A stretch of 64,000 nt of DNA, taken from NCBI RefSeq assembly GCF_003991155.1, contig NZ_CP031293.1; one strand, 5' to 3'. Below, piece by piece: positions 7,992 to 10,043 of this stretch. The translations under genes and the position numbers were made by a program. The notes under the pieces are model-generated. The model searched no databases and had not been told where the DNA came from. It saw only the letters and a program-made list of their open reading frames with translations. Each line of letters begins with the position of its first letter. Position 1 is the stretch's first letter. The stretch comes from Escherichia coli (lineage in GTDB: Bacteria > Pseudomonadota > Gammaproteobacteria > Enterobacterales > Enterobacteriaceae).

Positions 7992-9095
7992 ATGGACCGC
8001 ATTATTCAATCACCAGGTAAATACATCCAGGGCGCAGATGTAATTAATCGTCTGGGCGAGTACCTGAAGCCACTGGCGGAACGCTGGTTAGTGGTGGGTG
8101 ACAAATTTGTTTTAGGTTTTGCTCAATCCACTGTCGAGAAAAGCTTTAAAGATGCTGGACTGGTAGTAGAAATTGCGCCGTTTGGCGGTGAATGTTCGCA
8201 AAATGAGATCGACCGTCTGCGTGGCATCGCGGAGACTGCGCAGTGTGGCGCAATTCTCGGTATCGGTGGCGGAAAAACCCTCGATACTGCCAAAGCACTG
8301 GCACATTTCATGGGTGTTCCGGTAGCGATCGCACCGACTATCGCCTCTACCGACGCACCGTGCAGTGCGTTGTCTGTTATCTACACCGATGAGGGTGAGT
8401 TTGACCGCTATCTGATGTTGCCAAATAACCCGAATATGGTCATTGTCGACACCAAAATCGTCGCTGGCGCACCTGCACGTCTGTTAGCGGCGGGTATCGG
8501 CGATGCGCTGGCAACCTGGTTTGAAGCACGCGCCTGTTCCCGTAGCGGCGCGACCACCATGGCGGGCGGCAAGTGCACTCAGGCAGCGCTGGCACTGGCT
8601 GAACTGTGCTACAACACCCTGCTGGAAGAAGGCGAAAAAGCGATGCTTGCCGCCGAACAGCATGTAGTGACTCCGGCGCTGGAGCGCGTGATTGAAGCGA
8701 ACACCTATTTGAGCGGTGTTGGTTTTGAAAGCGGCGGGCTGGCGGCGGCACACGCGGTACATAACGGCCTGACCGCTATCCCGGACGCGCATCACTATTA
8801 TCATGGTGAAAAAGTGGCATTCGGTACGCTGACGCAGCTGGTTCTGGAAAACGCGCCGGTGGAGGAAATCGAAACCGTAGCTGCGCTTAGCCATGCGGTA
8901 GGTTTGCCAATAACTCTCGCTCAACTGGATATTAAAGAAGATGTCCCGGCGAAAATGCGAATTGTGGCAGAAGCGGCATGTGCAGAAGGTGAAACCATCC
9001 ACAACATGCCTGGCGGCGCAACGCCAGATCAGGTTTACGCCGCACTGCTGGTAGCTGACCAGTATGGACAACGTTTCCTGCAAGAGTGGGAATAA
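7992..9095 (+). CDS. gldA: Glycerol dehydrogenase
   Basis: 367 aa from [13 protein letters not shown]; iron-type alcohol dehydrogenase motifs ([12 protein letters not shown]); the ORF-track start at 7953 is an upstream in-frame extension overlapping fsaB. Confidence 0.93.
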
Positions 9096-9103
9096 CCTAC
9101 TCC

Positions 9104-9130
9104 AAACTCCCGGCTTGTCCGGGAGTTTGA
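9104..9130 (+). terminator. Hairpin immediately downstream of gldA (caaactcccgg-cttgt-ccgggagtttg)
   Basis: Perfect 11 bp inverted repeat 9 bp after the gldA stop; no strong T-run, so intrinsic-terminator function is uncertain. Confidence 0.5.
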
Positions 9131-9171
9131 GAGTGCAGGCAAAGTGGCTCACTCGTCACTGCGGGCATGTT

Positions 9172-9282
9172 TTTCCCCCTCGCCCTTTCAGGGAGAGGGG
9201 CGGGGTGAGGGTAAATATTCGCCCCGGAGCTGGCCTGTACCCCTCACCCTAACCCTCTCCCCAAAGGGGAGAGGGGACTGTT
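9172..9282. repeat. GC-rich imperfect palindromic intergenic repeat element (family not assigned)
   Basis: Segments gggagaggggcggggtgagggta and cccctcaccctaaccctctccccaaaggggagagggg are mutually complementary and internally palindromic; located in the gldA-yijF spacer. Confidence 0.5.
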
Positions 9283-9425
9283 CGAGCACTTTTTATACGT
9301 TATCACCCGTCTGAAACTCCCACGTTGTTCAGGAATTTTTTATCCGCTTCTGGACATTTTCTCCACAGAACAATCGTTAGCCCGGAAGGTCGAATCTGTG
9401 ACTCTTATTTTCACGGACGAAACAG

Positions 9426-10043
9426 ATGAAAGCTTCACTGGCGTTATTCAGTCTTCTGACGGTATTTACCAGTTACTCCTTAAAATCTCCCGCCGTTCCA
9501 CCAACCGTGGTACAAATCCAGGCCAACAGCAATCTTGCCATCGCAGACGGTGCCAGACAGCAAATCGGCAGCACGCTATTTTACGATCCGGCGTATGTGC
9601 AGCTTACCTATCCTGGCGGTGATGTCCCGCAAGAACGCGGCGTATGTTCCGATGTGGTGATCCGTGCATTGCGCAGCCAGAAGGTCGATTTGCAGAAACT
9701 GGTGCACGAAGATATGGCGAAGAATTTTGCTGCGTACCCGCAAAAATGGCAGTTAAAGCGCCCGGACAGCAACATCGATCACCGTCGGGTGCCTAATCTG
9801 GAAACCTGGTTTACCCGCCACGATAAAACACGCCCCACCAGCAAGAACCCCAGTGACTATCAATCGGGCGATATTGTCTCCTGGCGATTAGATAACGGGC
9901 TGGCACATATTGGGGTGGTGTCAGATGGCTTCGCCCGCGACGGTACGCCGCTGGTGATACATAACATTGGCGCAGGCGCGCAGGAAGAAGACGTGCTGTT
10001 TAGCTGGCGGATGGTGGGGCACTATCGGTATTTTGTTAAATAA
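9426..10043 (+). CDS. yijF: DUF1287-family secreted protein YijF
   Basis: 205 aa ORF with N-terminal signal peptide (MKASLALFSLLTVFTSYS); recognised as E. coli YijF; synteny. Confidence 0.88.
   Translation: MKASLALFSLLTVFTSYSLKSPAVPPTVVQIQANSNLAIADGARQQIGSTLFYDPAYVQLTYPGGDVPQERGVCSDVVIRALRSQKVDLQKLVHEDMAKNFAAYPQKWQLKRPDSNIDHRRVPNLETWFTRHDKTRPTSKNPSDYQSGDIVSWRLDNGLAHIGVVSDGFARDGTPLVIHNIGAGAQEEDVLFSWRMVGHYRYFVK

Follow-up and report, generated by a model that had tools for sequence, protein, structure and literature searches.

The G/C-rich intergenic motif of Escherichia coli that was described in the 1990s as BoxC (Bergler/Bachellier) and later as PIT elements (Hoyne/Maher, 2000) was renamed TMECO by Holder et al (2015; PMC4666352), who treat it as a triplex motif with the consensus 5'-CCCTCNCCC-N3-6-GGGNGAGGG-N3-GGGNGAGGG-3'. 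MG1655 carries 23 TMECO copies (PMC4666352, Table 1), which are divided by their second loop into type A (TTA) and type B (CCG-like, a class that in the same table also includes TCG and CTG). Five inverted pairs are found in K-12, each always made of one A and one B copy (PMC4666352). The motif is always intergenic, occurs irrespective of what the neighbouring genes do and of how far away they lie, and has been reported in more than 260 genomes (PMC4666352). The G-quadruplex-hairpin-duplex switch motifs HPG1 and HPG2 (Kaplan et al, 2016; PMC5100583) have the same sequences as BoxC and are another description of this repeat family.

The structural behaviour of these repeats has been studied directly. 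In vitro, the isolated G-rich TMECO strand forms a stable intrastrand triplex, as seen by CD and NMR (PMC4666352), and the near-identical HPG sequences form a G-quadruplex (PMC5100583). In the work summarised in PMC4666352, DNA polymerase was blocked by PIT/TMECO elements in vitro, with no effect in vivo; the elements had neither promoter nor terminator activity and left RNA polymerase unaffected, and triplex protection was absent in in vivo DMS footprinting. Variability is greater around TMECO motifs than around control intergenic sites, and Holder et al sorted it into the categories "region missing", "TMECO mutated" and "palindrome effect" (PMC4666352).

We analysed a stretch of E. coli DNA of 64,000 nucleotides (hereafter the window), in which an initial annotation, made from the sequence alone, had pointed out a self-complementary element at 9172-9282 and assigned it to a family of dispersed intergenic repeats for which it had no confident name. 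In the window, the published TMECO consensus occurs exactly twice, against 0.00 expected (100 shuffles), and both matches coincide with the two arms of this element. Since both arms match the consensus exactly, the element is, by its sequence, a convergent inverted pair of BoxC (PIT/TMECO) copies, type-B-like on the plus strand and type A on the minus strand, and the unnamed family is BoxC. The element does lie where the initial annotation placed it; the strain-specific insert that contains it is larger and extends over about 9132-9309. The features of the region are as follows:

9103-9129, plus strand: gldA 3' hairpin with an 11-bp perfect stem (CAAACTCCCGG / CCGGGAGTTTG), at the left boundary of the insert; context.
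About 9132-9309, no strand: strain-specific insert that represents the BoxC-pair unit in its long form, as delimited by allele alignment.
9132-9169, plus strand: left extension module of about 38 nt, shared among the copies examined only with the ygfF-gcvP copy.
9177-9211, plus strand: BoxC/TMECO motif, type-B-like, CCCTCGCCC-TTTCA-GGGAGAGGG-GCG-GGGTGAGGG; exact consensus match.
9212-9240, no strand: central spacer of 29 nt, TAAATATTCGCCCCGGAGCTGGCCTGTAC, kept in the pairs at ygfF-gcvP, alx-sstT and fepB-entC.
9241-9275, minus strand: BoxC/TMECO motif, type A, CCCTCTCCC-CTTTG-GGGAGAGGG-TTA-GGGTGAGGG; exact consensus match.
9277-9309, plus strand: right flank module, ACTGTTCGAGCACTTTTTATACGTTATCACCCG, also present in the copies at ygfF-gcvP and alx-sstT and ending (9309) at the boundary of the polymorphism described below.
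9314-9338, plus strand: degenerate repeat of the gldA hairpin, with 76% identity to 9104-9128 and a T-run after it; context.

The pair lies between the gldA stop codon (9095) and the yijF start (9426), and is thus intergenic, in a spacer of 330 bp (9096-9425) that is 100% identical to that of E. coli strain 2016C-3878. RefSeq annotation of the syntenic region identified the neighbours as gldA and yijF, in agreement with the earlier proposal. Beyond the consensus and the intergenic site, the element has the many dispersed copies and the inverted A+B pairing of BoxC. The left arm is one base away from K-12 TMECO no. 10, and one base also separates the right arm from no. 11. In its intergenic location, its A and B loops and its inverted A+B pairing the element resembles the five paired sites of K-12. 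It differs from the K-12 repeats in three respects: K-12 lacks BoxC at gldA-yijF; the left arm has GCG as its second loop, where type B copies in K-12 have CCG, TCG or CTG (the right arm has the TTA of type A); and the left extension of about 38 nt has a counterpart only at ygfF-gcvP among the copies examined. [quoted passage not shown] The name RU-3 of Delihas was considered for the family and rejected, as the published RU-3 sequence is a BIME (PMC2759123, Table 1b). Another set of E. coli repeats, RSA, is annotated in the original K-12 GenBank record as six copies of 150/151 bp (PMC5172473, Table 1); compared by length and copy number alone, these repeats fall in the same size class as the BoxC-pair unit and share its low copy number.

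A repeat search of the window delimited two inverted arms of 36 nt each (9176-9211 and 9241-9276), 81% complementary and separated by 29 nt. The strings on which the initial annotation had based its long imperfect hairpin were located at 9191-9213 (gggagaggggcggggtgagggta) and 9240-9276 (cccctcaccctaaccctctccccaaaggggagagggg), and the predicted folds bear out that structure. RNA from 9160-9290 is predicted to form one long hairpin on either strand, with -73.8 kcal/mol (z -4.8) for the plus strand and -69.7 kcal/mol (z -4.5) for the minus strand, and none of 200 shuffles was as stable in either case. The DNA fold of 9168-9285 (-31.3 kcal/mol, z -4.1) was likewise not equalled by any shuffle. 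Each 36-nt arm also contains a small separate hairpin of its own; this had been described for the right arm, correctly, and the left arm turned out to have one too.

The element is the minority form of a polymorphic locus. A match over at least 80% of the spacer, taken as the BoxC-pair version, was found in 635 of 5426 complete E. coli genomes, 43 of these records being at least 99% identical to the window and 592 between 95 and 99%; the pair is therefore absent from gldA-yijF in 88% of E. coli genomes. In K-12 (KLY; extract 636-758) and CFT073, a BIME of two REPs lies between boundaries identical to those of the window insert, GGGAGTTTGA on the left and TCTGAAACTCCC on the right in both alleles, and O157:H7 gave the two-piece match and the spacer length seen in K-12 and CFT073. 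The BoxC pair is thus an alternative allele to the BIME present at this position in most E. coli strains. No alignment was obtained between the window insert and the REPs of K-12 or CFT073, and the REP (PU) palindrome was not found in the insert, in line with the earlier view that the element is of a type different from REP. Like REP/BIME sequences, BoxC is dispersed, intergenic, hairpin-forming and typically located just 3' of genes, but the two have no sequence similarity, BoxC being a mirror-repeat purine/pyrimidine block and REP a palindrome. About 115 bp directly upstream of yijF are conserved in both alleles.

Three other carriers of the BoxC pair were compared with the window. They show G>T at 9200, which converts the left loop into the TCG of K-12 B-type copies, a change at 9239, and G>A at 9204 or 9205, which breaks the third G-block of the left arm that is intact in the window copy. 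All three sit on flanking haplotypes different from that of the window. These differences fit an old allele that has been moved by homologous recombination and is slowly decaying.

Both inserts are framed by a duplicated hairpin. The gldA 3' hairpin just past the stop codon is conserved in K-12 and CFT073 and is predicted to be stable as DNA (-13.0 kcal/mol, z -6.4); the right copy at 9314-9338 no longer folds (-1.8 kcal/mol, z 0.0). The insert boundaries fall inside this duplicated hairpin. As its two copies also flank the BIME allele, the duplication cannot be assigned to either insert, and the 24% divergence between the copies indicates that it is old.

The spacer is also variable beyond E. 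coli. In Salmonella (extract 2243-2500) it contains a different, unrelated insert, starting TTTCAGCTTGCTGACACAAC, for which no E. coli homologue was found, and in Pseudocitrobacter (extract 2319-2500) another unrelated insert, with a REP-like unit; no empty site was found, and the sequence directly upstream of yijF is partly conserved in both. Additional look-ups with YijF yielded frameshifted E. coli assemblies alone, in which the spacer has the K-12 length (about 274 bp). As different strains and genera hold different inserts, the position immediately past the gldA hairpin is a hot spot of repeat insertion. At another E. coli locus, roughly 2400 genomes lack the block made up of ygfF and its BoxC pair, and a REP is found instead in their bglA-gcvP spacer; on the right, this indel stops exactly where the BoxC-pair unit ends. 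In one strain, a 6-bp deletion lies inside a BoxC arm. The suggestion that such elements mark recombination-prone sites agrees both with the published local variability and with the BIME/BoxC-pair polymorphism seen here.

Other copies of the element, the existence of which the initial annotation had proposed to check, are numerous. Using 9126-9300 as a blastn query, we obtained 73,509 places, spread over 5396 of the 5426 complete genomes of E. coli. Single genomes had between 1 and 27 places (median 15), and nine were counted in the genome with a 100% match to the window. The arms and short flanks aligned with the K-12 paired copies at ygfF-gcvP, alx-sstT, fepB-entC and hrpB-mrcB. The 29-nt central spacer aligned at the first three of these loci and is shorter and different at hrpB-mrcB; its retention among paired copies shows that the pair spreads as one unit. 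The closest paralogue is the ygfF-gcvP copy (84-87% identity over 168 bp), which also aligned with the left 51 nt of the unit (window 9126-9176; score 27). The right flank module scored 18 against alx-sstT and 13 against ygfF-gcvP, and none of 2000 shuffles reached the score in any of these three comparisons. The consensus hairpin is kept in all seven aligned paralogous copies, so that neither of the findings named beforehand as contradicting a repeat family, a lack of other copies and a lack of conserved structure, was made. Across these seven copies, none of the 31 hairpin pairs showed a compensatory change. The conservation of the hairpin thus follows from that of the sequence and provides no independent evidence of selection on the structure.

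No evidence of a dedicated role emerged from the remaining analyses. An Rfam scan of 8800-9700 (E <= 10) gave no family at or above its gathering threshold; the best matches were microRNA-precursor models with 20-28 bits against thresholds of 58-160, that is, generic long-hairpin matches. No sigma-70-like promoter was found in 9000-9500. No intrinsic terminator was called at the large hairpin, the next T5 beginning 15 nt downstream, and the sole terminator-like site called was a weak 5-bp stem in the left extension (9152-9165). No annotated feature lies beneath the element in any RefSeq record examined, including NC_000913.3 at the K-12 copies. The suggestion that such elements can be expressed as stable structured RNAs receives no support here, neither from Rfam nor from the promoter search. 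Taken together with the negative results in the literature, the lack of a promoter, terminator, Rfam family or annotation makes a function-less dispersed repeat the best explanation. We put the probability that the element is a copy of a known dispersed non-coding repeat, a BoxC inverted pair without dedicated cellular function, at about 0.8; on this negative evidence, such a function is probably absent. The long hairpin or cruciform would then be a by-product of having inverted copies of a purine/pyrimidine mirror motif, and the triplex or G-quadruplex potential of each arm a by-product of the mirror motif itself. The BoxC-pair allele would spread among strains mainly through homologous recombination in the flanking genes, and its main consequence, if any, would be a somewhat raised local sequence instability while the DNA is single-stranded during replication or repair.

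The main rival to this explanation, which we regard as unlikely, is an effect on the 3' end of the gldA mRNA by analogy with BIMEs, in which the hairpin would act at the RNA level to protect or attenuate the gldA transcript and take over the job done by the BIME in other strains. BIMEs have been reported to act as mRNA stabilisers or attenuators, stabilising the upstream mRNA (PMC2267715), and as the BoxC pair replaces a BIME in exactly its place, a similar effect on gldA is conceivable. The position of the element would allow it, since it lies 37 nt past the gldA hairpin, which has no T-run (GGGAGTTTGAGAG), and would be co-transcribed on read-through, and the predicted RNA hairpin is very stable (-73.8 kcal/mol). 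However, earlier experiments with PIT/TMECO elements revealed neither terminator activity nor any influence on RNA polymerase (PMC4666352), no T-run directly follows the large hairpin and no terminator was called there. The pair is moreover a minority allele that is decaying by point mutation in other carriers, and compensatory changes were seen at 0 of the 31 hairpin pairs.

The breadth of the motif outside E. coli counts against a reading without function. Scanning species-representative genomes for GGGTGAGGG-N15-45-CCCTCACCC gave at least 120 loci, and the matches listed were all outside Enterobacteriaceae. Among the matches listed, the same inverted-pair layout (CCCTCTCCC-loop-GGGAGAGGG beside GGGTGAGGG) occurs in Polaromonas, Methylomagnum, Archangium, Pseudolabrys and a planctomycete, and dozens of times in Bradyrhizobium, with dozens of copies per MAG; the Polaromonas inverted pairs have the TTA loop, and 46 of the 120 loci listed match the E. 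coli consensus in full. Such wide taxonomic recurrence is hard to explain by neutrality alone, and is a hint that a mechanism of spread or a binding partner has been conserved. In a plasmid collection, matches were mostly mislabelled chromosomes or chromids, with Azospirillum chromids among those that scored. The element was essentially absent from a phage collection, where the only matches, at 88-89% identity to part of the unit, were the Campylobacter phages A18a/A11a and a 2.5-kb record labelled "Escherichia phage". The Campylobacter matches are odd and may reflect contamination or chance GC-rich similarity.

Another rival explanation, which we consider improbable, is that the composite is a MITE-like element related to Yersinia YPAL/RU-2 (De Gregorio, 2006; Delihas, 2007) that inserts at hairpin targets and duplicates them. 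The element shares with YPAL/RU-2 a size of about 168 bp (168-178 bp for the long form), inverted repeats that are internal rather than terminal, and the adjacency to dyad-symmetric, terminator-like targets, at which YPAL is reported to make duplications of 3-26 bp (PMC2229807). The gldA hairpin on both sides of the insert (9104-9128 and 9314-9338, 76% identical) would correspond to such a duplication, yet it is equally present in the BIME allele and hence cannot be ascribed to the BoxC pair. Target-site duplications, in the form of flanking direct repeats, were found at none of the five K-12 paired copies, and neither 5'-TA-3' termini, nor a transposase, nor terminal inverted repeats apart from the BoxC motifs were found. 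The central hairpin is unrelated to that of YPAL. At ygfF-gcvP, the left module of the copy is similar to the 5' end of YPAL (TTGAGATTGCTAACAAAC versus TTCAGACTGCTGACAAAC; a score reached by 0 of 2000 shuffles). In the window copy, neither end has significant similarity to YPAL, and the local alignment of this copy with the 168-nt YPAL unit scored 15-16 against a null of 15.7 +/- 2.3. The likeness at ygfF-gcvP remains a lead only. The left extension of the long form has, in addition, some resemblance to the start of the Salmonella insert as well as to the YPAL/RU-2 5' end, significant only for the ygfF-gcvP copy.

A more general reading, to which we also give little credence, is that the BoxC pair forms a discrete cassette (about 125-180 bp) that moves as a whole, by exchange or insertion, into sites flanked by hairpins just 3' of genes. 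It is similarly doubtful that all parts of this reading hold together, namely that the same sites accept BIMEs and the Salmonella and Pseudocitrobacter repeats, and that the long form may have a YPAL-related end module. If true, it would mean that a hairpin-targeting mobilisation mechanism is common to several enterobacterial repeat families, and perhaps operates also in the look-alike units of Polaromonas and Bradyrhizobium.

That the element encodes a small non-coding RNA, or serves yijF as a regulatory operator, is very improbable. Its place in a spacer of 330 bp upstream of yijF and the strong structure predicted on both strands speak for such a role. Against this, 9000-9500 contains no promoter-like site, no Rfam family was recognised, 88% of E. 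coli genomes lack the element, the conserved sequence before yijF (about 115 bp) is that common to both alleles, and the motif is unrelated to the functions of its neighbouring genes in the published analysis (PMC4666352). A chance GC-rich palindrome without a family, for which only the short length speaks, is refuted by the shuffles, of which 0 of 200 fold as well, by the two occurrences of the consensus against 0.00 expected, and by thousands of related places across E. coli genomes.

Taken alone, the element is of little importance, being an ordinary member of a published family. It is an already known repeat in a known configuration, and the polymorphism of the locus is of a kind already published for BoxC; the family, its A and B types, the inverted-pair layout, the structural potential and the link with local variability have all been reported previously. 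What gldA-yijF offers is a natural pair of alleles, BoxC pair versus BIME (635 versus roughly 4790 genomes), with identical boundaries and similar flanks, which could serve as a comparison for the effects of repeats on 3'-end formation, on the expression of neighbouring genes and on the local mutation rate.

Other changes were seen around yijF itself. A Logan contig (1828-3121) of Escherichia-like gene order has yijF directly after an fsaB-like gene, with a 10-bp spacer and with gldA and its spacer missing. At the 5' end of yijF (9444-9474), the window differs from K-12 and from other BoxC-pair carriers by about nine substitutions in 31 bp, which suggests a mosaic (recombinant) yijF 5' end in the strain of the window.
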